The notes beneath the pieces are model-generated. The model saw nothing but the letters and a program-made list of their open reading frames with translations. It was not told the DNA's origin and ran no database searches. Below, piece after piece: positions 28,301-52,300 of a stretch of 64,000 bases of DNA (position 1 is the first letter of the stretch; every line of letters begins with the position of its first letter). Source of the DNA: Podarcis gaigeae (Eukaryota); assembly GCA_964106915.2 (NCBI GenBank), contig OZ066914.1; one strand, written 5' to 3'. Both the position numbers and the translations under genes were made by a program.

Positions 28301-31300
28301 TGGTGTCAATGAATTCCTGTAGGCACTTTGCCTGCACAACTTCGAGCAGCTGGCCTTTGCTGATCTGCAGCAGTGCATTGTGTTGACTGTGTAGTTTGTA
28401 AGGTCTTTTGAAATATTATGTTTATGTGGGTGAAACTGCCACGTGCTTTAGATCTCTTATGGCATTCTTGTTTTGTGAGACATTTCTCTGTCCCTGTTAA
28501 AAGCTGTCCTGAATCTTAATGTCCTTCATGAAAGTTTTCTGCAGTGTACACTCTTTTGGACCTTTATTTAAAAAAAAAAAAAGAAAATAAATGATTTCAT
28601 AAATATTATTTCTGTTTAAAAATCTGCAGTGAATATTTTACATTATGATGCCTTTGGATAAGAAATAACTATTTCTGTTCTTGAAAAAGAGCAAATTCCA
28701 TAAACCAAAAGCAGGCCAGTTAATTATCTAAGTGTATTGTCAAGTTTTTGCTAAATGTATGCCTGCTTAATATTATGTTGTCATGTTGGTCTCCTGTATT
28801 AGAAAATCTTGAGATATCAAATGTCTATGAAGTTTTCTTTGTCTGTAATCCTCTTACAAGACCACCAACAGCAACATTTCAGAGAGAGGGTTTTAAATTC
28901 ACAACGTGGTTTTCTTACATTTCCTATCTTTCAAGTGCCAGAAGTTCCAAAGACAGTTATCTCAGAAGAAAAAATATCTATTGCTGTCCCCAAAAGGAAA
29001 GCAGCCCCTCCAGAAAAAGGTATACAAGCTTTGAAGTAAACTAAATCAAAGTACAAGTGGTTAATGTGCTAACAACCCCCCTATTAATTCCCATAGCCAA
29101 CCCTAAGTTATTAAGGAAATTCATTTTTCTGCCCCAAATACATTTGAGAGGATATCGCTTTGGGCACTCCCCTCCCCCAATTTATTTTATTTTATTTAAA
29201 CCTAGAAGGCTTGACATAAAAGTTACATTTGTTTTGTAACTGCTTAATCAGTCTTATTGAAATTCCCGTTGTCTGACCCAAATAGTGTTTCCCGTAAGAA
29301 ATGCTAAAGTTCAATACTCTGTCTTTAATAATAGTTGTGGAAGAACACTGGGGGTATTCGGAAGAAATGTCTGTTTCTCTTCACACAGAAGAGGAAGTTT
29401 CATATACAGGTATGAACTCAACCAGGGTAGGGGAACAGGAATCCTAACCAATTCACCGTATAGATTAATGGGCAGGGTGAGAACGTAAAATGAACCTACA
29501 AGATCAGGCCAATGACCCATCTAGTCCAGCATCCTGTTTTCACAGTGTTTCATGAGATGCCTTTGGGAAGCATGTGGCATAATTGTCAACTTTTCCCTAT
29601 TCTTGCGAGGAATCCTTTTCGGAATAAGGGAATTCCCCTTTAAAAAAGGGAACCGTTGACAGCTATGGCATGTGGGTATCACCTCAGTTTTCACTTTTAT
29701 ATTAAAATGAGGTGTATCTAAAGGTGTTCTACTGATCCATTAGAGGCTTCCATCAGCCAAACGGTGAGGAAAGTGATTTTTGCCAAATCCCTCTTCTTCT
29801 TGCAGCTCCCATGCCTCTGCGCCACAAATGTGCTCTGTGGGAGGTGGCATGGAGGATGTAGAGGGGAAGGCAATTTGGTGTAAACTGGTGTTTCCTTCCC
29901 TGTTCTACTGACAGAAGCCTCCACTTTCTCAAAAAAAACCACCTCCCGTCAGTAGAGGTGCATCTTTGGAAACAACCCAATCTGACTTTTTCTTACATTA
30001 GCAGAATTATTAGTTCTAGAATTAACCAGTGTAAATGCTAATTCACTAAAGAAGTTCACTGATATAAAGCAGTGGTGCAGGATAGTATTCGTGTAAGAAT
30101 AGCTTAGGGTGTTCAACTTCATTCATGGTGAGGCAAAAAAGAAGCAGTTTGTTGATCTAAACCACAGATAACAGTGGACTTTTGGTTGTTTGGCTCCCCA
30201 TACCCTCCAACAGAGTAAATTTCACAGCTTGCATAAATTATTGGTTTGTTTGTTCATTTTTGGTTTGGATGACTGCTACAGTTGTTCCATCCCATAAAGC
30301 TGAAGGCTTAAATCTTCCCACATACCGTAATCTCTTCTAGAATGTAGAAATTTCTTCAAAATGTCAGTAACCTAAACAGAGACTTGGCATAATACCCACT
30401 TAATGTAACCAGACTTTCAATGACTTCCACCCCTTTGATTTACCAGACATAGCAGCTTGCAATGAAAGTCCCTATGTATTATCTTGAAAAATTACTGTAG
30501 ATTACTGTCTAGAGTATTTCTAAGTAATAGCACCTGAAGAAATGGGCAGCTTTCCAATATGATAGACATACAGACTCCACTGATCCTAACAACAAAATGG
30601 TGTATATGCACTACACCAGTAAGAAGACGGATGTATAAAGACTATACTTGCAACTATGCGTTAGCCACATCTTGTCCAAATGTTTGTTCATTTGTCTGGC
30701 AACATAAATGTTTGTTTCTGTCAAATTTCCTACTGCTCTTTGTGGCCTTCTGTACCTTTACCATCAAAGCTCTGAAACATAAATATACTGTGTCTTTAAA
30801 GTTCCCGAAGAACCTGAGAGAATTCCCACAAAACAGAAAATGCCCATATCAATTGCCGCTAAAGTGAAGAAACCTCCAGCTAAAGGTATTGTGCCAATGT
30901 GTGCTCTTTGTGTGCCATAAGTGTATACCGTCTGCTGCTGTATATCTGAGTGTTCTTGTCCTAGCTTGATTCTTTCATTGCAGTGAAATTTGGTTCTTAG
31001 TATGCGTTAAATAATACGTTAGCTAAGACTCTTGAAAATTCGTATTTTTTAAGTGCCTGAAGTCCGTAAGACCGTTACTCGAAAAGAAGTGGTTCATGTG
31101 GAAGTTCCCCAATATGAAGAGGAGGAAGAGGCTCCCCAATATGAAGAGGAAGAAGTCACACAATATGAAGAGGAAGAAGTCACACAATATGAAGAGGAAG
31201 TCACACAATATGAGAAAGAAGTCTCTCATTATGAGGAGGAAGTCACCCGATATGAGGAAGAAGTCACACAATATGAGGAGGAAGTACCTCAATATGAAGA

Positions 31301-34300
31301 GGAGGAAGTTCCTCATTATGAAGAAGTTCCTGAGTACGAGGAAGAGGAAGAAGTGCCTCCTCCGCCTCCTCCAGCTAAAGGTAACATCCCAGTTTACAAG
31401 CGCATTACAAAGAAAGGATTATTATTATTATTGGTTTGGCTTTGGCTTTTGTTTGCTTGGTTATTTATTTGGTTTTCGCTTTCAGTTCATTTTGCTCTCC
31501 TTTGTTGTGAGATGTGTGCGGTGCAGCTCATGTTGCAAGTAGAAATAGCTGTAGTTGAATTAGAGAATATCCCAGAAACACTGAGCTTGTCCACGCTAGG
31601 CAGTGTCTTTAGTCCTAGCAAAACTCTCAGGAATATATTTCATTTCCACCCAGGCTTCTCCAAGCTGAATAAAATGTCAATTCAGCAAGCTAGTTGTGTG
31701 CCAAAACCCTGTGACACCACAGTTCCCAGAGAGTAAATAACCAGAGAATACAACAGCATATAGTTTGGGGGTAAAATAGATTACAAAAATATATACAGAA
31801 CATCTGATAGCATTGACCTATGCTCTACTGAATAGTGAGATCAGGAAGAAAGTGTCTAGCATCCGATAGTGTCCCGTTGTCCTTCCATTGCCAACCACCC
31901 CTCTCCATGTGCCGAGCAATATATCTTAACCATAGAGGAGATGGGAAATTTCTCCTCCATGACCTTCCCTTAAATAACTTATCTTTGAATCTTTGCTTTT
32001 GAATTACTCTCCCCTCCCAGCATCAGTGTCCCCATCTGCGGAAGGACTGTGGCTTTGTGGTAAAACATCTGCTTTGAATGTAGAAGGTTCTAGTTTCAAT
32101 CCCTGGCATTCCCAGGCAGGACTAAGAATGTCCCGTTTGTCATTATACAGTCACACCTTGGAAGTCGAATGGAATCCATTCCGGAAGTCCGTTTGACTTC
32201 CAAAACGTTTGGAAACCAAAGCTGCGGAAGCCCCATCAGACATTTGGCTTCCAAAAATAGTTCACAAACCGGAACAGTCACTTCTGGGTTTGCAGCGTTT
32301 GGGAGCCAAAACGTCCGAGTACCATGGCGTTCGGGACCCAAGGTATGACTAATTGACAACGAGGAGCTAGATGGACCCAGTGGTCTGGCTTGATTACAAA
32401 AAAACAGCTATGTATGCCCCATTTCACTGTATTCAGGAAGGAGCCCCAACACTCTGGAGAGGACTTTCAGGGGATGCAAGTGACTGCAAAGGGGAAGAGG
32501 GAGCAAGCAACTTTCCTTAAGTTAACTTAGCTTGCAGGGGTCATGTCAGAGTGTTGCAATACAGCTGTGTTCTTATGGTGCGTCTTGGTGCATCCATTCT
32601 TTTAAATACAATCTTATCCTTCAAGTGCCTGAGGTACCAAAGAAGCCTGTCCCTGAGAAAAAGGCTCCTCCTGAGCCTGTCCCCAAGAAGAAGGAAGCTC
32701 CTCCAGCAAAAGGTATATCTATCTTCATTCGGTGTCCTCAAACTCTTGCTTTCATTTCATTAAGTTTGTTGGCTCAGTGGCGTTAGTGGGCTGGGGATCA
32801 GCTGTAGACATGCCCTTTGTTGACTCTCTGTTTTAATGTGCTGTGTGAATGGTGTGGTGTCCTCAACAATCTCTTGCCCTATCTTTAAAGTGCCTGAGGT
32901 GCCAAAGAAACCCGTCCCGGAAGAAAAGGTTCCGGTTCCTAAACGAAAAGAAGCCCCACCAGCTAAAGGTAAATCAGTGTGAGGCTTGCCCTGTGCAAAT
33001 AAACTTACCTAATCGGCTACAACTAGGCTGTTGATTGCAATGATGTACTTAGATTTTCCTGTTGTGTTGATGTTGTGTCACGACCCACTCTGGGCACGTT
33101 TATGTGGCAAAAATTGCTGTGCAAACAATAACTGTGTTAATAGTCCTTTAATCCTGTTAAATGTAACTTCTTGTTTATTTTCTTCAACAACAAAAAATCT
33201 TCTTGTGTTTTGTGTCACTGTTCTCCATCTTCATTTGGAAACCAAATTCTATGCTCAACATACTGTCTCTTTCAATTGAAGTGCCTGAAGTGCCCAAGAA
33301 AGTGGTCCCTGAAGAGAAAGTACCTGTTCCTAAAAAGGTGGAAGCTCCTCCTGCTAAAGGTATCATCTCCTTGTTCACCTGGTCATCCTTTTAAACCAGG
33401 GTTTCCCCAAACTTGGGTTTCCAGGTGGGTTTTTTTGGGACTACAATACCCATCATCCCTGGCCACTGGTTCTGCTAGCTAGGGATGATGGGCATTGTAA
33501 TCCAAAAACAGCTGGTGATTCAAGTTTGGACAGCCTTGTTGTAAGCAATTGACCTGCTATGTTACATAGCAGGGCTGCAGTTTGTTGTACCTCTCCCTGG
33601 GTGGTCAATACCATGAAGGGTGGGCCTGTAAATATAAATATTAAAGAAACATTATATCAGTGAGAAAAACCTGGCGGTTTCATTAAGAGCAGATCTGCAA
33701 ATCCCCTTGCCCTTGTGGTTCAGATGCAGCACATTCTTCTTTTAGTTCTTTTGCTTTGTGGTGTCTCAGTACTAGAAGGAGTCAAATCAATCTGCAAATT
33801 AATCTTTTTAAAGTGCCGGCCGTGCCGAAAAAAGCCGTGCCAGAAGAGAAAGTGCCTGTTGCGGTCCCCAAAAAAACAGAGCCCGCTCCACCTAAAGGTA
33901 TCTGAAATAATATTTGAAAGATATAAATTATACATACATGTGTAAGTGCTTTACCCATGGTTTGACACAGAGATATGTACAGAATATTTCAACAAGCAAT
34001 ATTAACCATGCAGAGTCAACAAGGATGTGTAGATTTGCATCCACAGATACACCCACCCGAGATACCAGTGGTTTTTGTGTTTTGTCTTCTACTACATCTG
34101 TTCTTTCTTTTTTGTGATACAATGTGCATATAAAGTCTGTTTCTTGGTGTCTTTAAAGTGCCTGAGATACCCAAGAAAGCTGTGTCTGAAGCAAAGGTGC
34201 CTCTCACTGTGCCCAAAAAACCAGAACCTCCACCAGCTAAAGGTATATTGACCCAGTCAAAATCAGTCTTCTTGATCTCATGTGTTTCTTTAATCTTAGA

Positions 34301-37300
34301 TGTGATGCTTGTGTATGTCAAATATAGTTGTTGTCCCTTGCCTGTCAGCTCTTTCTCTTTCTGTCTCTTTCTTTGTCACAACAAACCCATAAATCACATT
34401 CTTCAAATTAAATCCTTGAAGTGCCTCATATACCAAAGGAGCCTGTCCCAGAAGAAGCACCTGTTTATATACCTGAAGAAGAGGAAGCTATACCTGAAAA
34501 AGGTACATTCAGCTCATCATTATCCTTACCAAAGACCTCTTTTAAAAATAAGAACAATAATATGATCTGTGTCGTTTGCTTTATGTTCTCTAAAAGCCAT
34601 GCAATCTGATCTTATGCATGTTTACTCAGGAACAAATTCTGCTAGGCTTACCAAATTCTGGGCAAGCAGAGTTTTGTTGATTCAGTGGGACTTCCCTTTC
34701 CCCCTTTTTCCCATGCACCCCCCAAAAAATCTGCTCAAATAGTCCCCTGACTTCCATATGTGAATTTTGAGGGAGCACAGAGTGGCACTGCAGGCGGGAG
34801 GAAACAACAGGGAAGTTCCATTGGGTAATCAGTAAAATAGCATTGGAGACAATGAACGATTACTCCCAAGTGAATGGGCATAGGACTGCAGACAAACTTT
34901 TAATTGCAGTCTAAATACTTCTCTTTCTTGATCTGGTTTCATGCTGCAATTTTCTTTATAACGCCTCTGAAAATAATTTTACAAACCTGTTTCTAAAGAC
35001 ATAAATAATAGCACTTGAGTATTTAAAGATAACTGTTTCTATGTAAAGATATTTGCATAGCCATACTCAAGAGGTACACCATCCAATGTTGGAGAAAAAC
35101 CATGTGAACTGGTTTTGAAGAAGACATTGGGTTGGTATCTGAGATCAACCAGCCTGCCTGCTGGTTGTTGATAGTTGGGTCAAAAGGTCACTCCCCGAAA
35201 AGCATCAAGGGTGATGCTCCCCGCCGGACTGCCTCTCAGTAGGGTGCCTCCATGTGACCTCTGGGCAGCAATATCCCTTCCCAAACCCCTTTAACAGGGT
35301 AAGGTAAAGGTAAAGGGACCCCTGACCATTAGGTCCATTCGTGACGGACTCTGGGGTTGCGGCACTCATCTCGCTTTACTGGCCGAGGGAGCCGGCGTAC
35401 AGCTTCTGGGTCATGTGGCCAGCATGACTAAGCCACTTCTGGTGAACCAGAGCAGCACACAGAAACGCTGTTTATCTTCCCACCAGAGCGTTACCTATTT
35501 ATCTACTTGCACTTTGATGTGCTTTCGAACTGCTAGGTTGGTAGGAGCAGAGACCGAACAACAGGAGCTCACCCCATCATGGGGATTCGAACCGCCGACC
35601 TTCTGATCAGCAAGTCCTAGGCTCTGTGATTTAACCCACAGTGCCACCCGTGTCTCATTTTAACAGGGTACCCAGTTGTAAAAAGCTCCAGACCCGATTC
35701 CTTAACCTTAACCTTAACTCATTATCTGATTTGGTATAACGACACTTCTTTGAACACTGTGGGATTTGCTCCTAAGTAAACATGCATAGGATTGATGTAC
35801 ATTGTTTAGTTATCATGAGCAAAGGCCCACACTGTTTCGCAAATTGTTTTTGAAACTCTGCGAAATTTCAAATGTGGTGTGTGATATGGCCTGGCTGCTG
35901 TTCTGAGGGAAATATTCACAAATTCTGTTAAGCAAACCCTAAAGCAGATTCATGAATTGTGGTCTATGCTGTGACCTGTGTTTGTGCTCCCCGCCCTGCC
36001 CCAAACCCAACGTGAGCTATGTTTCTCTTTCCGAAGTGGATTAAAAACAAAATTCTTAATCCGAAAATATGTGTTTAAAGTCCCAGAAGTGCCAAAGAAA
36101 GTCGTCCCAGAAAAGAGAGTCCCTGCAGCTGTTCCCAAAAAAGTGGAGCCTCCTCCAGCAAAAGGTACATTGAGTAACAAAGAAGTAGTGTATGTTTTCT
36201 TCAGTTGTACTAACAACCTGACCTTCCAGAAGAGAAAAGAAACTTCTTGTTTGCCAGTGAATTCAGGGGGATTCAAACTGTGTGCAGGAAATATTTCAAA
36301 ATGTGTATAGCACAACATGTTTGTCCTGTGTCACTTTTGTCTGTTTGCAATGTGTGGAAAATGGCTTCCCAGCAGAATATTGTCTGTTGGGTTCTTGAAT
36401 TGCTGAAGTTCTTGTTCTGCGAATTTCTTGCTTTTTGTACACATCTTCCTGTTCTTGGTGCTTCTTGGTGTTGTGTTAGCACTGAGGATTTCTTTAAAAA
36501 ACAAAACATATTCTCAAAACACTATCATGCTTTTTTTTTTTAAGTGGCTGAGGTTCCTAAACCTGTCCCTGAAGAGAAAGTGCCCGTTCCCAAAAAGGTG
36601 CCGTCTCCTCCAGCAAAAGGTACTTACTTTAAGTCTAGAAATTATCATTATGTCTCGGAGCATTGAAACACATAGCTAACAATGCTGTGAAGTCTTACAT
36701 GTTTGTGTGTGTGGTGGCTTTAAATTAAGTCTATGTTGTCTTTAAAGTGCCTGAGGTTCCTAAGCCTGTTCCGGAGGAGAAAGTTCCTGTTGCCAAAAAG
36801 GTCCCAGCTCCTCCCAAAAAAGGTATATCCAATCTTTAAAACGGTGTGCAATTTTTATTTTTACTTTTGTCCATACACTGATAACCATTTGTATTAATTA
36901 ATTAGCTATTAAAGTAGGGTTGCCGTACGTCATACCTGGTGTTCACTTTTGGGAATATGGCAAAGTTGTCTGAATAGATAGCTCTTAAACGTTGCAATGC
37001 CATATGTGTTTGTCCGCGCTGGCTCGAGACCAAATTCTTAAAACAACTCAATATTCTTTAAAGTGCCTGAAGTTCCCAAACCTGTCCCAGAAGAGAAAGT
37101 CCCTGTTCCTAAAAAGGTGGCAGCTCCTCCAGAGAAAGGTATATCCATAAATCTATACCTATAGATACATAAGATGATAACTTTTATCGTGGCATTAACC
37201 AGTCATTTTTGTTGTTGTTGTCCCATTACATTTGAACTTGAACCAACTAAACAATGCCATCCTATACACTTCGACTCCGAAGTAAGTCCCATTGGGATCA

Positions 37301-40300
37301 ATAGGACTTACGTCCAGGAAAAGGATGGGTATAGGATTGCATTCTAAATCAGTGTAGTGATTTGTGTCATCTTGTATGTCTGTGTGTTGCTTGTGATCTT
37401 GTAGTTTGACTGACATTATATAAAAAAGCTAAAGTAGCGGTGTCATGTCTTTAAAGTGCCTGAGGTACCCAAGAAAGTTGTCCCTGAAAAGAAGGTACCA
37501 ACTGCTCCTCCTAAAAAAATAGAGGCTCCACCTGCCAAAGGTACATCTCTTCTTATCTGTGTTATAACGTTCTTCTTTCATATTACTAATTATATGTGTG
37601 TTTTATCACAGACTGTCAAATATACGTTAGTAAGTTCTTGAGTTCATTTTTATTCATGCTTTATGAATTATGTGGTTTTCTTATACTTGGTAAACAATTT
37701 AAACAGCACCTACCTAAAACAGCACTGTATTTTTTAACATCTCTGAGGAAAAAATATCTGCTGTTATATCAAAGAAAATTCTTCCACCTAAGTTTGTTTT
37801 TGTGCATCTCTAAATATCTTGTAAAGAGAATTTATTATTAATCTTTTCTAACATCTTCTAGTCTATTACTATAGGCTACTAGCATTACAGGTATCTCTTT
37901 TTTATTTTTAAAAACCCTTCTTGTAATTATTTGATAGCTTTGGGTGGTTTTCTTTCTATATTTGCTTTGTATGCTTATGCACCAGCAAGTCTTTGAAATA
38001 ATGAAAAATTAATGCTATCTTTAAAGTGCCTGTGGTACGTAAGAAACCCATCCCTGAAGAACAGGTCACTGTTGAAAAATACTTCTATGAAGAATATGAG
38101 AAATATGAGACCTATGAGAAGACTGAGGAGTTTCTTCAGGTAGAAGAGGGTGAAGAACCTGAAGAATATGAGGAAGCCCCAGAACCTGAAAGATATGAAG
38201 AAGCTCCAGAAGAACCTGAAGTCGAGCAATACGAGGAAGCTCCAGAAGAATTTGAACAGTATGAAGAAGCTCCAGAACCGGAGGAACTTGAGTACTATGA
38301 AGAGGTTCAGGAGACCAAGGAGATTGAAGAATATGAGGAAGTGTATGAGGTTCCACCAGCAATAGGTATATTAATCACTTACCTGTTGTTTGTTGCTGCC
38401 CTGAGATTGAACCTTCTTTTGAATGCCCAAATTTCCCCTCCCCCCAAAAATCCACCCCAGTATTCCCTGCTTTTGTGCTTACAAGACTCCATTTGAGGGA
38501 CAGGTTTCCCAGAGTGGGTCAAACCAACTATGATGTTGTTACTGAAGAGTTTAAAAGCTAATTATGGGTGTATCCTCCTTTAATGATTAGAGACTTCTTC
38601 TGTAATTGTGATTACAGTCTTCTGAATTTGGCAATTTGGTTTCTTTGTAAATAACTAAAAGCTCCTTTGTAAAATGTTTTTCAAGTGCCTGAGGTGCCTA
38701 AAAGAGCCATTGCTGAAGAAAAAGTAAAAGTTGCTGTACCTAAAAAAGAGGAAGCTCCACCAGCTAAAGGTAGATAAAGTTGCTGAATCTGTTCCTTTGT
38801 GTACCCTGAAAAATCAGATGCCCTCATGGTTGACTGTTGTCCTTACATTTCAGTTTTCACTAGCATTAAGATTGCAGATAGGACATTAATTTTATTATGT
38901 CACTATGGGTTGTATCCATTGTTAGTCGTAGTCATAACAGACCCAATGAAATTAAAGGTCATGACTAACATAGGCCCATTAATTTCACTGTGTCTGCTCT
39001 GAGTTGGATACAAATCTGTTAGCTGAACTGTCTAAGGGCATGAGCTATGTATACATCTGGTAGCTTTTCCTCAGTTCTTTTAAGTCAATGCCTGGCCAGC
39101 TAGCGAGGAACTCCCCCAGCTTGGGCCTCTGACTGGCCAATGTGAACCTGGCGCTTCACTTGACAGAAAGTTGTACCCATGGCCATGACAACTGGGGGGA
39201 ATTCCCCATCAGCCAGCAACCATGTGTGTTCAGCTGCCAGGGGAGGAGACCTTCCAAAGTGGCTTTTCAGAGGAAGAATAGGACTTGAGGGAGGGTATAG
39301 TTGGATTGTGGTTCCAAACCACCTAAGTTTCATTACATTTAGTGGAACAGTTTCCTATATATGTAAGCAACTAGATAAGAGAAGGCAGATCAGTATAGCT
39401 AACAAACTGGGATAGATAATTTTTTTCCTTCTCTGTCGAACTTGACATTTAATCAATATTGCCCCTATGCGTCTGTGTCTCTTTTTAAACCCCTTCTGTC
39501 ATTTTGTGTGGCATTTTAAGTCTGTTTTGTTTATTCTTGCACTTGATTCGTAATTCAAAGAATGGCAAACTCTTAAAAGAAATACATGTTTTTAAAGTGC
39601 CCACAGCAAAAAAGAAACCAGAAGAAAAAGTACCTCTTGCTGTTCCTAAGAAAGAAGTGACTCCTCCACCTAAAGGTACATTCACTCTTCGCTATCTTGT
39701 GCATCTTTCATCTTCTCTCTGTGTATTTTGTATAAATGTGTTGTGCACCTTCAATGGTATGTTGTGTTTGTTCTGTATGTGTACGTATTCATGGTGTGTC
39801 CTTGTGTTTTGTGTTCCCTTCTTTTGTAATTATGTATATAGCATTCATGTAAGATTCATAAATAACTAAACAAAAGTATTGTATCTTTAAAGTGCCTGAG
39901 ATACCTAAGAAAGCTGTTCCTGAAGAAAAAGTGCCTAAGACTGTTCCCAAAAGGAAAGAGCCTTCACCAACTAAAGGTAGATTCAGTAGTAAGACAGAAA
40001 GAATATTGACATTCCTGTGTTCTTGTCTATGGTGTTATCACTAACGCCTCAGAAGAGAACTTTCAGCAATGTGCACATTATTTTAGAAGTGTGTATTTCT
40101 CCAAATAAGCTTGAGTACATGCTCTATCTTTAAAGTGCCTGACATTCCCAAGAGAGCCGTCCCTGAAGAAAAAGTATCCATCACTACCTATGAAGCAGAA
40201 GAACCTCCCACAGTAAAAGGTAGATGAAATTTTGAATAGGCAAGAACAAAAAAAGTATATCTTCATCAGTGTAGTTGCGTGATCAGTGTGCTTAGATCAC

Positions 40301-43300
40301 AGCAGTAAGGCCCTTAGATGTTCCTGACACAAGTGTATCATAAATCCTACGAAATCTGGAGAAAACATTTTCATTTGGCTTACAAAACTCTGTTGACTAT
40401 GTTGACAACAGCTGTGATTGGAAGATGTCCTAAATAAAGTGACGATGTTTATTGTATAAAGGAAAAGAGGTATAGCTGACATTAGAAAATGTATTTTATC
40501 GGCCAAGCCAATTTATTAAATTTAAATTGCTCATTATCCCCTTCTTTCCTGCGTAGGAAACCATTAAAATGATATTCTGCCCCTGAAGTATTTAAAATGG
40601 AAAAAGAATTTGTTTAGTTATTCTTTTCTCTGTGTTATGGTTGTCTTGTGTTTAAAGATGTTATAACTATTTTTTTTATTAAAAAAAACCCAACTAAGAG
40701 AAAACTAATATCTTTAAAGCTCCCGCAGTTCATGAGAAAACATTACGGGAAGAAAAAGTTACTTATATTATCTCCAGAGAAAAGGAAGGTGCTACAGTTG
40801 AAGGTACATCAGAGTTTTATTCAATTTGCAAAATAACTAAGCTTGAAAAGCCAGTCAGTCAGTTTAACAATTTAATTGGCACTGAGAATAGTAAGAGGTG
40901 TCTGATTTTGTAGACTTTATAATATCAAACAGCTTACCGTGCTGTGTTTTGCTTAATCAAAATGTCATGATTTAAAATATTATTGTCCACATGTTTTGGC
41001 GTGAGGACAGATTGCAGTGAGGTAGCAGGTTTTATGGTCCAATGGTAGGATTCTGGCTCCAGTGCTGAATTTCCTTTGCAAAGCTTCCTATCAATCATTT
41101 GATCTCGACAGTCTGAAGCAAATGCACTTGGCCAAACATAGACATAAGGGCAGGAATCTGAGTTGTTAGTATGCGGAGCAGAGCCTGTTGTCACTGTGTC
41201 AAGAAGAGCATAGTAATTCATAGCCATTTCACTTTTAAAAGCCAAAGGAAACAAAATAGATGTCAGAGAGCAAATCATAAATGAGTTGTGCTTCTTTAGT
41301 TCTAGGATTATTCTTTTTTTAACTTTGTTTGTTTTCTTGATCTGCTGGTCTTCACTGTGTGCTGTTTATTTTTTCCCCCAACCTGTCCTTTGTGTGTCCT
41401 TTTGAAACGTCTCAAATATACTAATATCTTTAAAGTGCTTGAACTGGAAGAGGAAGCTGTCCCAGAAGAAACGGCTCCCATTGGTGTTCCTATAAAACAG
41501 AAAGCTCCGCCCATTAAAGGTACATACACCACCTCTTCCGCTAACTTCCCAAAGTGCGAACTACCATTGTATTATCCAGGCCCTTTGTTGGTCTGTTCCT
41601 TTTTGTCTTATGTGTGACATAATTGTATACATACTCAAAAATAAACTAATATCTTTAAAGTGCCTCCGGCGGCAAAGAAAGCTGTGCCAGAGAAGAAGAA
41701 ACCTACACCTGTACCTAAAGAAGAAGCAACGCCTATCAAAGGTAACACACCTTTAGCTACAACTGCAGTGAAATGAGACATTTCACCATTTTATTTCCCC
41801 ACCTGCTATTCTCTTACATAATTCAGTGTTTTGTGCAATGTAGGCGAATTTCTTGCCAAATTAATTACAAATTATTCCATGCAGTTTTAGGGGGAATAAT
41901 TAAATGGGATAAAATTCAGATCACCAGTACTAGAAATCTGAATAGGAATAGGAATATTGCTTTTCATCTAGAATCGCCGCTCTTGCAAAGCAGAGACGAA
42001 TGCAGAAGGCTCAATTGGTCATAAGGCAATGTTTCGTCGCTGTAATTCTATCATGGAAGATACGTGTCAAATTTCTTCCAAGATCTTCGAAATATGTGTG
42101 TGTGTCCTGTTGTTTTGTCTGTGGTCTGTAATAACCTCTTATTTTAAAATGCCCACGTTTCTAAAAAAAGACTAATATCTTTAAAGCACCTGAGGTTCGA
42201 GAAAAGGCTGTTTCACAAGAAATAATTCCTACTCCATCGGTCTCAAAAGAATTGGAACCTCCGGCAGCTAAAGGTACAACAGCAATTAGGTGAAAGTGAT
42301 AATGAATTAGCAAATTTCAAGGCATTTAAATGTGCCACAATAGCTCATTGTCATAAATTTCGGGGTGTTGTGTGCCAACGTCAATAACTGTTTATTTAGT
42401 TTGTCTGTTTCTATGTGTTTCACAAATTTTAATTTCCTGCCAAAAACTAATATCTTTAAAGTGCCTGTGATACAAAAGAAAGCCATTTCGGAGGAACAAG
42501 TAACAGTTCAAGTATCTAGGAAAGAAGCTACACACTATGAAGGTACATAATCCTTTAATTGAATGTTTCATCTAAAAGTCTTCTAACGTGTCAATGCTTT
42601 ATGTTACAGAGCCCAAGCCCAGGTTGTCATGTATACTAAAGGTGTTTATGGCCATTTGATCGGCCATCCACACTCCATTCACATTACTAATTGGATAGAT
42701 TTTAAGTAAATTCATTTTCAAATGCAGCAATAGACACACATGGGGGATTGTTTCAAGGTTTAGATATTATTTAGGCTGCCTTTCATGTGTCTCAGATGTA
42801 GCCCAATAAAAACCATTCTCATAAAGCATTAAGGGAGAAAAATGAAAACTTGGGTGGAAAAGAAAATAGCATAAGATCCAGTTAATGATAGTTCAGTAGC
42901 AATGAAAAACTTTTTTTCAGAACTTAACTGAAGAGTGGAATAACTAGAAACCAGAAAGGTGGAACACTTAGATTTTAATTAGATTAGACCAACTGGTTTC
43001 AGTGGGGCCAAACTTTATAACTAGCGAGGCTAACCATAAAAGCATGACGTGATCAGTTGAGGGGTGGGCCTTAACTTGCCCATGAGAGCAGAAAAATATT
43101 CAGAGCCCAGGGGGGTAAAAAGGAGTTCCAGCAAAAAATGTTTAGGGACTTATGGAGTGCAGAAGGGGCATATTTCAGAACCTTTCACTCCTTCACCCCC
43201 TTTGCTCTTAACAACAGGCACTCTACTTTATATGTGATTGTAGCAAACCTAGATCTAAGCAAATAATTGTGCTGCACTCCTATCTAGTTTTAGCCTGAGC

Positions 43301-46300
43301 ATCTCTAATTAGCAGAGCAAAAGGTTAGAATTAGTTAACCTTGAAGAAGGCCTGCTTCTGTGACTAAATGGAAAGTATAAGTTTATTCCACAATAAATAC
43401 GGCTGGGCTCTCTGTTTGTTGGTCATAGTCTTTTGTTATGTCTTTTTTGTCCTATGCTTTTTACAAGTATGATTTTGCATGTCTCAAAGAAAACTAATAT
43501 CTTTAAGATACAGAAACATATGAGGAAATGCTTCTAGAAGAAATGGAAGAACGGTATCCTGCCACCATTCCTAGGAAACGTGAGGTTGCACCTCCCAAAG
43601 GTATATTCTCTCTTCAAGGAAAACGTAAAGCTACCAAAGTCACAAAAGTGACATATTTTCATTATTTTGCTCTTGTTCAGTTTGATGCTACTATTTGAAT
43701 TTTGTGGTTTTAAAATTCTTACAAGGGAATTGATTTTATTTAAAGTGTCTGAGGTGCCCAGAAAAGGAGTGGCAGAAGAGAAGATATCCATTGCAAAGCA
43801 TGAAAAAACAGAATTAGTTTCTGTACATAAAAAAGCAGAACTTACTGAAGTATCTCAGATAACGCAGCCTCAAGCACCAGAAAGGAAGACAGCTGCTCAT
43901 AAACCCACAAAACCAGAATCTATTGCTGTATCAAAGCCAGCAGAGCCTGAGGTGCCAAAACAGAAGCTACTTGTTGCCAAACCCAGAAAACCACAACCCG
44001 TTGTGGAGCCTGAAGTGCAAGAAGAGGAGATAGATATTGCTGAACCTGAGGAACCCATACCTGTTGCAGTTTATGAGGCGGTCGAACCTCATGTGCCAGA
44101 AAAGAAGAAAGTCGTTGCTAAACCTAAAACACCAGAGCCTGTTGTGATGCTTAAAACAGTAGAGTCAAAACAGGAGATAGCTGTTGCCAAACCCAGAAAA
44201 CCAGAACCTCTTGTGGAGCTTAAAACAGAAGAGTCTGAGGTGCCAGAAAAGAAGCTAATCATTGCTAAACCTAAAAAAACAAAACCTGGTGTGGTCCCTA
44301 AAACAACAGAGCCTCCAGTGCGAGAAGAGCAGATGGCTGTCTCCAAACCTAGGAAACCACAACCTGTTGGGTTTCCTCAAACAGTAGAGCCTGAAATGGA
44401 GGAAGAGGAGATAGATATTGCTGAACCTGAGGAACCAAAACCTGTTGTAGTTCTTGAGACGGTAGAACCTCATGTACCCAAAAAGAAGGTTGTTGCTAAA
44501 CCTAAAAAACCAGAACCTATTATGGTGTCTAAAATAGTGGAGCCTCCAGTGCCAAAACAGAAGATAGCTGTCACTGAACCCAGAAAACCAGGACCTGTTG
44601 TAGAGCCTGAAACAGCAGAGCCTGAAGTGCTGGAAGAGCAGGTAGTTGTCTCCAAACCCAGAAAACCAGAATCCATTGTCATGGCTCAGATGGTACAGTC
44701 TGAAGTGGAAGAAGAGGGGGTAGATATTGCTGAACTCAAGAAACCAAAACCCACTTCAGTTCTTGAGGCAGTTGAACTTCATGTGCCAGAAAAGAAAGCA
44801 GTTGTTGCTAAACCTCAAAAAACAGAGCCTCTGGTGCCTGAGCCTCCTGCACCAAAACAGAAGATAGCTGTCACCAAACCCAGAAAACCACAACCTGCTT
44901 TGGTGCCTGACATAGAAGGGCCTGAAGAGGAAGAAAAGAAGGCAACCATTGCTAAACCTAAAAAAACAGAGCTTGGTGTGGCTCCTAAAATAGCAGAGCC
45001 TTACATGCCAGAAGACAAGATGGCTGTTGCCAAACCCAGAAAACAGGAATTCATTGTCATGCCTCAGATGGCAGAGCCTGAGCTGGAAGAAGAGACAGAT
45101 ATTGTGGAACCTGAGAAACCGAAACCTATTGCTGTTCTTGAGTCAGCAGAACCTCGTGTGCCAGAAAAGGAGGTAGCCGCTGCTAAACCTAAAAAACCAG
45201 AACTTATTGCAGTGCCTAAAACAGTAACGCTTCCAGCGGCAAAACAGAAGATGGCTGTCACCAAACCCAAAGAACCAGAAGTTGCCATGGTGCTTGAAGT
45301 GGAAGTGGAAGAAGAAAAGAGAGCAAAATCCGGGGAGCCAGAACCTACAGTGGTGCCTGAAACAGTTTGGTGGCAAGAGCCAGAGGAAAAGGCAGCTGTT
45401 TCCAAACCCAGAAAACCAGAGCCTGCTGTTGTGCTTGATGCAGCAGAGGCTCAAATACCAGAAGAGACTGTGATGGTTGCTAAGCCTAAAAAACAAGACC
45501 CTTATGCTGTGCCTGCAACAGAGTCTCCACCATTAAAAGGTAGACGTCATTCCCAAAGGGAAATGACACTCTTGGCTTAAGAAATGTTTGTCTTGTTTGT
45601 GGGGAAAAAAATCTTCTTTGTTTCATGTTAGTTTATAAATTTTGTACAGGCAACTTTTCTTGTCATACGTAAATGTGAATGTGCCTAATTAATGTCAATG
45701 TTTGGTGTCAAGTCTTTATGGTCTTGCTGTTATTTATCTTTATTGTGGCTTCTTCAGTTCGTACAATTAACACAATCTAATATCTTTATTGAAGTATCTG
45801 GTTTATCCAAGAAACCTGTTCTAGACAAGTGCTGACAAAAAGCAAAAAAACAGAAGCTCTGCTGGGTAAGAAAGAAAGTAAAAAAAGAACTTATCTCTTC
45901 TTGTTTCCTGATAATCTTGTGTCCCAAAAAGTTCCCATGCTGATTTTTGCAGAAATAGGAATATCATTTGCAGCTATATTCTTACCTTCCCTTTATAAAC
46001 AAATATGACGCAATACATAATAAAACATGAGGTCAGATGCCAGGATGAAAGGGGAAATGCTAATTATGATAACAATTAATAATAATAAACATACCCAAAC
46101 CACTGTCAGGAAGGTAACAGCTGTGGGAGTAATCTTACAAAACAGATATATCAGCAGGTATTTTGAAATCTTTCAAATGTTCAGTTGAGTTCAACCGTTT
46201 CCATCAGCCCATAAAAGATAACTACTTATATATATGAATGAAGGACCTGTATAGGGGGGAATTTTTATCCTAGTGCCTTCTCTTCAGTCACTTGAACGAT

Positions 46301-49300
46301 TTGTTCAGATTTGCCACCTGGACAGCTAATATTCAGCAACAATTGACGTTGTGGTGCTTGTTCATACGCCAACTATAGATGTTTTGAGAAAAGGTCTATG
46401 TCTATACAATGTAAAGGGCAGCCTCCTGCTTTCAATTGAATACCCACCCGTGTGATTTTAATGTCAATATTGTCCATGTCATTCCATGTCCGTGTGTCAT
46501 GTTCTGTCTGTTGGGAATAAATCTGTTTCACTTCTTCATGCCGTGTTATAAACCATTTTCAGTTCTTCAAAGTAAAATGTACTAATATCTTTAAAGTTCC
46601 CGAGATGCCCAAGAAGGCTGTGCCAGAAGAGAAAATACCTGTTGCAGTGCCTAAAAAACCAGCTCCTCCACCTGCTAAAGGTATATACCTCAGTCTTGGT
46701 GACATTCATTCTTACCAAAAGAAAAAGAAATGGGTTATGGGTTCACTTTCCCCCACCCCCATTTATAATTCTGCATTCTTTTCTTCTTCCTCGTCTTCTA
46801 AAAACCGATTTCATTTCTTAATTGGAAACATTCAGATAGGTTTTGGTTACAATTCAGAGAGTTATGGATACAAAACCCCATCGATTTCAGTGGAACTTGT
46901 TTGTCCCCTGAACTGTGATTGCTTAATATTGACCACTAACCTTCCTGATATTCCTCTAAAGGCGCCTCTTTATTCCTGACACTTTTGCCTGCATTTTAAC
47001 AAACTGAAACGTAACAGAAAATGATGCTATTTCTTTTCAAGTGCCTGAGGTTCCCACAAAAGTTGTCCCAGAAAAGAAGGTGCCAGCTGCTGTTCCAGAA
47101 GCACCTCCAGCTAAAGGTAACATCCCATTCGACAGAAAGCAGCAGTGGGTTAGGGCTGGTCCAGGAGGATAGGCATTGGCCTGGTTTGCATGACATGGTA
47201 AGAACAAACCTCAGCTGCAGCTCGTGATTGATGAGTAGACCACTAAACCAGGCTTCCTCAAACTCAGCCCTCCAGATGTTTTGAGACTACAATTCCCATC
47301 ATCCCTGACCACTGGTCCTGCTAGCTAGGGATCATGGGAGTTGTAGGCCAAAAACATCTGGAGGGCCGAGGTTGAGGAAGCCTGCACTAAACTAAACTTT
47401 GATTGAGCTCAGCGCAGTGTAATATTAAAAAAGACTATGGAGGACCAAAGGGGTTGCAAGCTGGTGATTGAAAGCCTGCACTTTTGCACAATTCTGGTAA
47501 GCCATAGCTTAGCTTACTGTGTCACATGAACCAGGCCAGTGTATATCTTTTTTTATTACTTTTTTATACTACACATTATCATCGCTAAATGCCATGTGTT
47601 CTTCACTTTAGTAGACGATATCAAGTGTGGTATTTGGATACCAAAGGTGGCAGAAATGTTCTCCTTTAAGCTAATACTATTTGTTTGTTTGTTTGTTTGT
47701 TTGTAGATTCACAGTCAGACTTTAATATCAATATTTCTAGAGTAGGTCACCATAAAAATAAGAAAGCAATTTTAAAAGATCAAACAGCAGATAAGACTAG
47801 CATCACTAAGACAGTCTCCTCAACAGTGAACAGGCAGGTGAAATAAATAGGGTGGCATCAAAAGATCTTATGAGAATATATAATTATGGTTTCCGTCAAA
47901 TTTCAAATTATAAATTATACATTAAAGATAAAGGATATAAAGTGAATATTATTATTTAAATATCCCCATCCCCATCTACTATAACTTTATTTCAAATTAT
48001 TATATTTCCTTTTTAAATTATTATTGAAATTAATTTATTGTAGTGTTGGTTGTTAAATTGCTAACTGCTTAATTATTTACTGTTCTGTTACTGGTTTGTC
48101 AATGCTGTGCTTTCTTCCTTACTATTACTTTCTATTTAAATTATGTATAATTTTTTTTTAAAAAAAAATGTTAATGATGGTGTTAATAACAACGATGGCA
48201 AAAAAGACGGCATGCTAGGTGAGCCTCCCTTGGGAAATAGTTTCATAAGAAAGCCACTACCCCAGTCGCCGCCCACCTTGTCTCAGAGAGATGGCACATT
48301 TCAGATGAGAGCCTTCAAAGACAAAGCCTTGTGTGTTAGATGATGGCCAGTGCAGTCAAATCTCAGAGGCAACTGCTGCTGCATTTGATGGGATTCAAAC
48401 GTAACTGGACCTAGGATTACAGCCTTAAGCTGAGCAATGTTGTCACTAGTTAATATTCAGTGGGACTTACTTCCTAGTGTGCTTTGTGTTTAGACTGCAG
48501 CCTCAGTTTGCATTTGTGTCTTAGAAGTTATGTGTATTGTCCTGCACCAAAGAGTAAGCAAAATCCATACCCTTCCTTTAACAGTGCCTGAAGTACCAAA
48601 GAAACCTGTTCCAGAAGAGAAAGTTGTGCCTAAAAAGCCAGAGGTGCCAGCAGCTAAAGGTGTGTGCATTTCATGTATTCAACAAATAAGATGCTCCCAT
48701 CCCTTCAGTTCCTTACTGTTCCTTTAGTGTCTACACTTCATTTCTTTCATACTTCCTTGTCATTATTCTTCACATAGAATACATGGCAGCAACGATAGCA
48801 CTTCTTAGTCATGTTGTATATATGGTATACAGTAGTACCTTGGTTCTCAATCTTAATCCATTCCAGGAGTCCATTTGACTCCCAAAACCATTAAAAAACC
48901 AAGACGCAGCTTCCAATTGGCTGCAGGAGCAAGCAGAAGCCGCATTGGATGTTTGCAGCGTTCAGGAGCCAATTTGTTCGACAACTAAGCTATTTGAGAG
49001 CCAAGGTACCACTGTACATGTTTAAGTTCACATTATTGAAGCTATTGTGTGTCCACCTGCTACCATTCTGTGACAGGATTAACATATGCTACCTTTGGAA
49101 GACATGGCATTAACATAAGCTAATCTTATTCAGTGCCCGAGGTACCAAAGAAACCTGTCCCAGAAGAAAAAGTTCCAGTGGCTGTGCCAAAGAAGCCAGA
49201 ACCTCCACCTGCCAAAGGTAGGCCTCATTTTTAAAGAAAGGATGACAAGTTAGTACTACCAGGGCTATTTTTCAGCCGGAACTCGCCGGAACTCAGTTCT

Positions 49301-52300
49301 GGCACCTCTCAGGTGGGCGCCATTTCCATTCTAAGGAAACAAAGTCTGGCACCTCTTTTTCTAGAAAAATAGCACTGAGAAGTACACATTTTTCAAACTG
49401 AAGTCTGCTGGTGTTACTATACTGTATATTTGCAATATCTAAATATATTTGGGTGAACACAAGAAGAGACCAAAAACTCATCTAATCTAGCACATGGCTG
49501 TCACAGTGCCCGACTAAATAGATGCTAATGGGAAGTCCACAAGCAGAACATGGGCACTACAGCATTCTCCTCACTTACAATTTCCCAAAAACTGGTTTTG
49601 AGGAGCATACTGCCCCTACTCCGGAAGTAATACACAACCATAATGACTGGTAGCCTTATTCCCCCATGAACCCTTTTGAAGGCAAACCAATTTGGTGGTC
49701 ATCACTGCATGTGGGAATCATGATCTCAAATGATGGATCTGTGCTGCTATTTAATGTTGGGGTTGTGTGTGTGTGTGTGTGTGTGTGTTTGCAACTGTGT
49801 ATGTTTCTTAAATGAGTTATTGTAAACAAAAATAATATTAATGTTTTCAAGTGCCTGAGGTGCCAAAGAAAGTTGTTCCGGAAAAGAAAGTACCAGCTGA
49901 AGTGCCTAAGAAACCGGAAGCTCCACCTGCTAAAGGTGTGTATTGCTTGTAACGCATGAAACAGCTTTGTTTGCTCTTGGGAGGAATATTTAACCTTTAT
50001 CAAGGGAAGAGACAGGAAAATATTGATTTCCGTCTGTGTGTTTCTACTGTGTGATCTGTAAAGAAAGACAGAAGGCTTACTACTGTACAGCTTAATTGTG
50101 TCATACCAGTTCTCCCCAGTTTTGTCTTATTTTTGAAGTTCTGTGTTTTACGACTTTCATGTGTCCTTAAGTATCTTCTGCACATTCTTTGATATTCGCA
50201 TTCTTAAATGAAATTATTTTCCCTTCAAGTTCCGGAAGTACCCAAGAAAGTGGTCCCTGAGGAAAAAGCAAAGGTTCCTGAGCCTAAAAAACCAGAGCCT
50301 CCTGCTGTTAAAGGTACATGTCATAAGTAGAAATGCCACAAAGAACTTCAGATTTGTTTTATAGATGTAACAATAACACATAACTGTGTCACATAACTGA
50401 ATATTTGTGAAAGTATGTTTAATAGTCTTATTTTCCCTCTGAGATGACTTCTCATAATGTAATATGAGAATATGTAATATGTAATATGTGTCCCATATGT
50501 ATTTTAGAAAAAAGATAGCCCTTTATGTTGGTTTCCCTGCCCCTTGTTTGCTCTTGTTAATTACTGGCATACATCACTGAAGCCCAAGACTTAAAACAAT
50601 TTACTATCTTTGAAGTTCCTGAGGTGCCAAAGAAAATCCCAGAAGAAAAAGTACCCGTGAAAAAGCCTGAACCTCCAGCACCCAAAGGTATATCTTAGCA
50701 TCTTGGGAATATTTGTATTATTATTGTTTTGCATGTTTAGTTCTTTCAAATTCGCTGCCTCCTGAGATTTCCTTCTACTGTTTCAGTGGCAAATTCAAAT
50801 CTATTTCACTCAATTCTATGAACAGATCTAAGGAGTGCAACTTGAGTTTCTTGCAGAAACTGTTTTCTCCTTGCGTTTTGCTCATATCTTCTACATTTAG
50901 AAAGCTGGTGCGTGTTTTAATCTGTTTATTGTTATTTTAGCCTTTTCAAAAGTCTTAAATTACTGTTAATTCTTCTTATCGATAATTGTATTATCTTTTT
51001 TTGTAAACCCCTTTGGGGTTTTGTTTTTTTATTTTACTTTATTTTTACAATCAAGCAGTATATAAAATTTCTCGTGAAATTAAATAAATAACTCGGACAT
51101 TAAAACTGACCAATGTCTTTTAAAGTGCCAGAAGTTCCCAAGAAAGTCGTTCCAGAAAAGAAACCGCCTGAACCAGAAGCTCCACCAGCTAAAGGTACAT
51201 GTCAATACTATTGTGGTCACATGGAAGCATCTTCTTATTCTGATGTGTTTGTTGTACTTTGTGTTCCTTGTTTTCTCTTATGATGTACAACATGTCTTCT
51301 TCATGTGAGATATCCAGAAGGCTTTCCGCCTATTTTAAAAAATAATTTGTTTATTAGCTTACTCTTAGCTCTTGGTGAGTGATCTGCCACCCAGGCTGTT
51401 GACCTATTTACTTTCAGCAACCCTGGCAGCAGAAATTTACTGAAAAATAATCGGTGTAGTTCATATACTTAAGGAAAATTCAAATGAGAATGTACCAGAA
51501 AGCATCTCCATCCCTTACTAATGCTATGCTCATCCTCCATTGACTGTGATAATTTAACAGAAGGACAAAGAAATAGGATGGCAGTTAAACTGCCACACTT
51601 TATAGAGATCTGCATAACTTCTCAGGAAAGGGAAGGAGGACTCATTTAACAAAACAAAAACAAAAACAAACTAGGGCTATAGCATGAAAATAAAGAAAAT
51701 ATACTGTCTGCATTTGTGGAGAGGAGGAGAAAATTGTATTTGAATATCGCTTTTGTCACTGTTTTCAAGTTTTGTGTTTATTGTTTTCAAATCTTTTATA
51801 TCTTTGACAATCACACATTCAAAACTAATATCTTTTAAGTGCCTGAAGTGCCCAAGAAAATTGTCCCAGAAGAAAAAGTACCAAAGAAACCAGAACCTCC
51901 CCCTGCTAAAGGTATTTGTCAATTCTGAAATAATCATAGTCAAAATATTTGGGTACAAAGCTTCTTATATAGAATCAGTGGTAAAACTCCCATGGGTTTT
52001 AAATGGAGCAAGCTTTTGCCTTGCTCCCATGCCTTCAGTTCCTTCATTTATTACTTCCCATTGAAATGTGGCATTTATTAGACACAGCCTAGGTGAAGCT
52101 AAGCACTTTTAAGGCTACAGTCCTATGCACACATCTGAGAGAAAAGTTCATTGTACACCATGGGACTTCCTTCTGACTAAACATTAGCAGGAAGTTTAAG
52201 CATGTCCCATTAATTTCAATGGAAGGATTAAGCACAAAGTGCTTAACCTTAACTGGATTATGCCCAAAGTAACATGTAATCCAAATGCTTATCAAACAGA

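Follow-up and report, generated by a model that had tools for sequence, protein, structure and literature searches.

The length of the PEVK region of titin sets the passive stiffness of muscle, and a longer PEVK goes with a lower passive stiffness (PMC6469411; PMC11033294). Reported lengths are 204 aa for rat cardiac and 821 aa for turtle cardiac PEVK (PMC11033294) and 634–774 aa for the elephant shark skeletal-muscle PEVK (PMC12241362), and the titin of the python heart is described as long and compliant (PMC11388396). A survey of 41 mammals puts the mean PEVK exon at 76 nt (PEVK-C) and 93 nt (PEVK-N), with duplication of exons and of blocks as the mode of growth; since the survey tool tends to truncate long exons, these mean sizes are no proof that mammals are without long ones (PMC6469411). 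In human TTN a nine-exon PEVK block is triplicated, and other mammals carry duplications too, so that higher-order repetition lengthens the spring (PMC6469411; PMC12241362). Duplication of this type copies exons together with their introns and leaves the units separately spliceable. The mammalian spring is described as varying in steps of about 28 residues via many small exons.

The PEVK repeats of the invertebrate titins, Sallimus of Drosophila and TTN-1 of C. elegans, reside in large exons. Tandem peptide repeats act as spring elements in these proteins (PMC3835035). As a general pattern, long internal exons have been described as coding preferentially for disordered sequence and as growing by insertion, in an abstract that holds no titin-spring case (PMC9825244).

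Here we describe a 1794-nt PEVK exon (hereafter the giant exon) in the titin gene of Podarcis gaigeae. It resembles titin PPAK exons (Pfam PF02818) in gene region, composition, phase 1-1 frame and T-rich acceptor, in a homologous core, and in that its alternative splicing alters PEVK length. Unlike mammalian PPAK exons, it appears to have grown inside one exon to 1794 nt, and its unit of 17 + 9 codons is not recognised by the Pfam PPAK family. It shares higher-order repetition with the human-type block duplications, but its repeat forms one continuous frame in which no inner introns were seen, and is therefore all-or-none. Sallimus and TTN-1 likewise use tandem peptide repeats, although no test made here showed their repeats to be homologous to PPAK, and the elongated internal exons offer a parallel in being long. 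Two poly-E exons nearby (327 and 339 nt, with periods of 21 and 27 nt) also show in-frame tandem growth within an exon, but they are five times shorter, rich in glutamate and tyrosine, and lack higher-order structure. The growth mechanism is generic and the functional reading extends textbook titin biology; a comparative look is warranted by the scale, by the clean history and by another exon of this kind close by. We consider it likely that an ordinary 84-nt exon grew internally into a 1794-nt cassette, which would change the length and stiffness of the spring in one step.

We found no account of such a giant PEVK exon in the literature searched, which did not extend to subscription-only work on the connectin of chicken, turtle, frog and zebrafish, and the accessible parts of PMC5852582 and PMC3835035 contain nothing on reptile PEVK exons. 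Protein searches with the giant-exon translation, among sequences of near and of longer length, gave no match within length limits that exclude full-length titins. A HMMER search of 1.84 billion representatives also returned no match to this low-complexity query. Ordinary titin PEVK was equally blank in these searches, so their outcome says nothing for or against a counterpart.

Position, size and reading frame

The window, that is, the whole 64,000-nt stretch of DNA analysed, carries part of a titin gene on the + strand, with Ig and N2A-type exons at 0.4–10.6 kb followed by PEVK exons to 63.5 kb; just past its end come one final PEVK exon and then distal Ig exons. Intronic SINE-like motifs suggest a lizard host. 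The flanking exons are presumably titin N2A and distal Ig, named here after the general layout of titin. The giant exon is a titin PEVK exon, with the N2A element before it and the distal tandem Ig segment after it:

43746..45539, + strand, the giant exon, a cassette exon of titin PEVK (1794 nt in phase 1-1, with 597 full codons)
43730..43745, + strand, 3' splice site of the giant exon (T-rich type common to the small PEVK exons; used in relatives' spliced contigs)

The exon is bounded by an acceptor AG at 43744–43745 and a donor GT at 45540–45541, and it stays open from end to end in a single frame, with 597 full codons; these ends and the phase resemble those of its neighbours. P, E, V and K make up 61.6% of the residues and A a further 9.4%, and the resulting 71% passes the composition threshold of PEVK_Finder (0.54, with A counted; PMC6469411). 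The 597 codons contain no Asn, no Cys and no stop. By a script with hand corrections we delimited 71 PEVK exons in the window, a lower bound, whose median length is 84 nt; the giant exon is 21 times as long as this median, and the next-longest exons measure 1416, 339, 327 and 240 nt. It accounts for 19% of the approximately 3130 PEVK residues predicted over the 71 exons. A preliminary description of this DNA had placed a single PEVK exon at exactly these coordinates and put it at about 20 times the typical PEVK exon, and both statements agree with our results. The giant exon is single-copy in the genome assembly (1.51 Gb, 211 contigs), and 97–100% of the region's words occur in DNA-like sequencing runs, which rules out an assembly artefact. 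Elsewhere in the window, a run of 230 N at 63145–63374 is intronic and lies beside a CATT microsatellite.

Repeat units and higher-order repeat

The interior of the giant exon is a tandem array marked by recurring acidic segments:

43871..45524, + strand, unit array, 22 anchored units of ~78 nt (classes D-A-B-C-E, 4–5-unit higher-order repeat)
44021..44044, + strand, acidic marker 1 of the higher-order repeat
44402..44425, + strand, acidic marker 2
44708..44734, + strand, acidic marker 3, one residue longer
45086..45109, + strand, acidic marker 4

Tandem Repeats Finder reported a period of 78 nt, and the best self-match lags of the DNA were 78, 687, 309 and 156. Among the 21 unit spacings, 10 were 26 aa, 2 were 25, 3 were 27 and 6 were 20–24, such that 11 of 21 deviate from 26 aa, always by whole codons. 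The preliminary description had counted about 21 units of mostly 25–26 aa, which the 22 anchors bear out, and an acidic pattern occurring four times; all four markers were found, and three fit the pattern exactly, the third in order being the exception.

The markers are spaced 5, 4 and 5 units apart. For the 17 of 22 units compared, nucleotide identity averaged 77% within classes (19 pairs) versus 63% between classes (101 pairs), although the classes had been set by eye and the permutation test on class identity is partly circular in consequence. Class labels were clustered in a tree built from all 22 units, with 0 of 200 label shuffles scoring as low; class D was strongly supported (99/99), E and C were weakly supported, and A and B were not recovered as single groups in this tree, A grouping with C and B mixing with E. 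These data support a higher-order repeat of 4–5 units in the giant exon, as had been proposed.

Charge also varied along the array: windows of 26 residues carried about +2, dipping to −7, −9 and −8, and the net charge per residue over the whole exon was −0.02. This alternation is putatively a small-scale echo of the PPAK and poly-E alternation. With glutamate at 17.4% and the acidic markers being short, the exon is not itself of the poly-E type, a motif with ~45% clustered glutamate (PMC9100103).

Origin of the exon

We built PPAK profiles from 18 ordinary 84-nt PPAK exons of the window. The profile of a 17-codon core exceeded 10 bits at 22 places in the giant exon, versus a mean of 0.27 (maximum 2) in 100 codon shuffles, and that of a 9-codon slice gave 32 matches versus 3.6 in shuffles, matching twice per unit at offsets of −1 and +8 from most anchors. 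Mapping of profile diagonals showed that the unit consists of an inner PPAK slice of 17 codons, the last 9 of which are then repeated. On these profile scores, the unit core is homologous to the PPAK core. The outer parts of a PPAK exon occur once each, at the giant exon's own ends:

43746..43765, + strand, single PPAK-exon-like start (top exon-start profile match, 16.8 bits; next 12.5)
45525..45539, + strand, single PPAK-exon-like end, followed by a GT donor (top exon-end profile match, 13.1 bits; next 9.2)

These profiles peak at the true ends of the exon, in keeping with the earlier remark that it starts and ends like an ordinary PPAK exon. A profile of a PPAK end fused to a PPAK start reached at most 0.5 bits inside the giant exon, and the units do not follow the pattern of one 26–28-residue motif per exon with a PPAK end and start. 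Pfam assigned no family to the 597-aa giant exon, and PF02818 matched both of the ordinary exons used as controls. The single start and end, together with the lack of fused junctions, point to growth by duplication inside one exon. Since fused junctions are lacking, the units are not fused exons, and the similarity of 26 to 28 residues is a coincidence of 17 + 9; the meaning that had been seen in the match between unit and PPAK module length is not supported for a unit that derives from inside the exon.

The simplest history, as far as present-day sequence can tell, would comprise three steps. A 27-nt inner slice would have been duplicated by slippage to give a 78-nt unit (17 + 9 codons); the 78-nt units would then have been amplified and have diverged into classes; and finally blocks of 4–5 units would have been copied, with only one copy each of the exon's own start, end and splice sites throughout. 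In the 22-unit tree the median end branch measures 0.15 changes per column and the contigs of related organisms differ from the window by ~2–4%, indicating that the amplification predates the splits from those relatives several-fold.

Splicing and alternative use in relatives

We compared 4 of 14 runs guessed to be RNA (X1, X2, X3 and X7), which come from related organisms with other species labels; X3 and X7, from two studies with two organism labels, are RNA-like by this guess, and 15 of 36 joints were listed. The exons concerned, besides the giant exon, are as follows:

41661..41741, + strand, upstream exon, origin of both the inclusion and the skip path in X3
42187..42273, + strand, small PEVK exon, 87 nt, skipped along with the giant exon
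42462..42542, + strand, small PEVK exon, 81 nt, skipped along with the giant exon
43508..43600, + strand, small PEVK exon, 93 nt, immediately upstream, skipped along with the giant exon
46597..46680, + strand, downstream ordinary PPAK exon, 84 nt, Pfam PF02818 match, joined by both paths

Contigs of X3 and X7 join 42273>42462, 42542>43508 and 43600>43746, all with GT..AG, so the 5' join of the giant exon was seen in two of the four runs, and its 3' join 45539>46597 in X3 only. A separate X3 contig leads from 41741 directly to the exon at 46597..46680 (one of four runs), dropping four exons together (2055 nt, 685 codons); the side of the join at this exon is only 24 nt long, so that a look-alike exon farther downstream may be the true partner. 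Depths of the X3 contigs were ~50 for inclusion and 56 for the skip, these being contig depths and no inclusion rate. X1 and X2 contigs run across introns and give no splice support for the giant exon. Thus, the giant exon is supported as spliced and alternatively used in related organisms. One splice choice had been expected to add about 600 residues; the alternative use stands, but the skip observed removes the four-exon block, and no skip of the giant exon alone was present among the 15 of 36 joints listed.

Contigs of X3 and X7, overlapping or nearly abutting, tile most of the giant exon, and no single one spans it. No GT..AG joint lies within the exon among the 15 of 36 joints listed, with which rare internal splicing would still be compatible; the sole consensus donor inside it (44639) would break the frame, and a search for a strong polypyrimidine acceptor inside it found none. 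Two listed joints were rejected as splices: 45427>49143, whose 21-nt side matches a look-alike exon (GT..GG), and 44941>44993, which reads as a 51-nt in-frame gap (GC..TA). X3 contigs alone carry four 1-nt indels (44272, 44551, 44683 and 45499), and the other runs covering these positions do not have them. They may be errors or a broken allele, and if real the frame would be lost in that organism.

Selection on frame and residues

Neutral simulations were started from the present sequence as a stand-in for the ancestor. At 0.10 changes per site, 0.5% of 2000 runs were free of stops, and at 0.15 changes per site none of 2000 runs was; the joint absence of stops, Asn and Cys had a probability of at most 0.005 under neutral mutation from the present sequence. 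Gap totals were multiples of 3 in 8 of 8 gapped exonic contig pieces (X1, X2 and X7) and in 1 of the 6 gapped, mostly intronic pieces listed, some gap events being common to runs, and the in-frame indels of the giant exon among relatives range over 3–51 nt. As to the residues, dN/dS between units was 0.85–0.95 after transition/transversion correction, which supersedes the uncorrected Nei-Gojobori values of 0.62 and 0.69 (interval 0.46–1.06), and the 35 exonic differences to relatives listed comprised 9 synonymous and 26 residue-changing ones (27% synonymous expected). Purifying selection on residues is therefore weak or absent, and selection appears to hold the frame and the PEVK-type composition, not particular residues. 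The preliminary description had read the diverged but open units as a sign of purifying selection and proposed dN/dS between units as the check: selection against stops is borne out by the simulations and the kept frame, and selection on residues is not.

Alternative explanations

The strongest objection to our reading accepts the origin described above and disputes adaptation only. According to this, the expansion is tolerated filler produced by slippage and unequal crossing-over, whose frame is kept as stops in titin are harmful, and which has no tuned mechanical role. The dN/dS between units and the 26 of 35 residue-changing differences listed are as neutrality predicts, the 3–51 nt indels show that length varies in frame among relatives, in this genome the second giant exon (see below) meets an in-frame stop when read from its typical acceptor, and neutral change of PEVK length is allowed for in PMC6469411. 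Loss or silencing would nevertheless have been open to an exon that can be skipped, but this one has remained open and spliced since before the compared organisms split, and near-neutral residues are equally expected of an entropic chain; we regard the filler account as quite possible but lean against it. It is unlikely, in our judgement, that the open frame does not serve as a single exon, being internally spliced like an exitron or present mainly in unproductive transcripts. The absence of a spanning contig, the 15 of 36 joints listed and the four 1-nt indels in X3 leave room for such use, but X3 and X7 contigs cover most of the exon with joins at its true ends, both inner joints listed lack GT..AG, and the frame is intact across 1.8 kb.

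The regular charge pattern would fit a repeated binding platform for actin, SH3 domains or calcium, in which basic units alternate with acidic markers, and PPAK and poly-E are reported to modulate each other's response to pH and calcium (PMC9100103). Residue-level constraint is absent, however, no family was matched and the charges nearly cancel over the exon as a whole (−0.02 per residue), which makes this function quite improbable. A fusion of ~22 neighbouring PPAK exons through intron loss by cDNA recombination could draw on the unit length of 26, which falls in the PPAK range of 26–28 (PMC9100103). This we reject as very improbable, because the best fused junction inside the exon scores 0.5 bits, compared with a median of 42 bits for real neighbouring exon junctions (n = 45, 40 of which exceed 5 bits), and the units lack either PPAK end and carry the 9-codon slice twice. 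Internal growth of a single PPAK exon into a cassette that alters the spring thus remains our preferred reading.

Consequences for the titin spring

From its composition, the giant exon is predicted to encode an extensible disordered segment, and we infer that it would be translated into titin, behave as an entropic spring and lower the passive stiffness. Taking ~0.38 nm of contour length per residue, it would add ~227 nm, and the four-exon block ~260 nm. Its ~600 residues in one exon come close to the whole elephant shark skeletal PEVK; they amount to about three times the cardiac PEVK of the rat and three quarters of that of the turtle. The giant exon represents a second route to a longer spring, and its duplication history is readable at three levels. 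Its near-neutral residues and kept frame offer a natural test of whether length and composition are all that matters in PEVK.

As a speculative extension, some lizards may possess a coarse titin switch, of a kind not known from mammals, based on two giant exons that each arose from one PPAK-type exon through inner duplication. One splice decision, dependent on muscle type or temperature, would then change contour length by about a quarter of a micrometre. Strong positive selection has been reported for squamate titin, in a paper whose accessible text does not give its place in the protein (PMC12961865), and lineage-specific repeat exons may, if this switch is real, underlie or confound that signal. 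Alignments of reptile titin in selection scans can include non-homologous repeat expansions.

A second giant exon and other neighbours

The giant exon is not unique, since a second one lies 8 kb downstream, at 53.9–55.3 kb; it was omitted from the preliminary description:

53869/53908-55323, + strand, second giant PEVK exon (1416–1455 nt)

It has a period of 453 nt with 2.6 copies that are 78% alike, and inner 27-nt repeats. Read from the typical PEVK acceptor (53869, 1455 nt) it contains one stop near its start, and reading from 53908, where there is a weaker AG, gives 1416 nt without a stop. Some X3 contigs have loose ends that match its interior, or its 3' end in continuity with a following exon. 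Both giant exons together make up 34% of the ~3130 predicted PEVK residues.

Two glutamate/tyrosine-rich PEVK exons at 31054-31380 (327 nt) and 38027-38365 (339 nt), with inner 21- and 27-nt repeats, are smaller cases of growth within an exon. At 41436-43600 lie five small PEVK exons in a row that are divergent, yet their T-rich acceptors are nearly identical (the same 16 bases in four of the five, one base shorter in the fifth), which suggests either that exons were duplicated locally or that the splice site is strongly constrained. Intronic interspersed repeats at 47249-47384 and 48600-49400, which we take to be SINE- or MITE-like, had very high contig depth in three of the four runs, and a SINE-like insert resembling them lies near 35295-35600.
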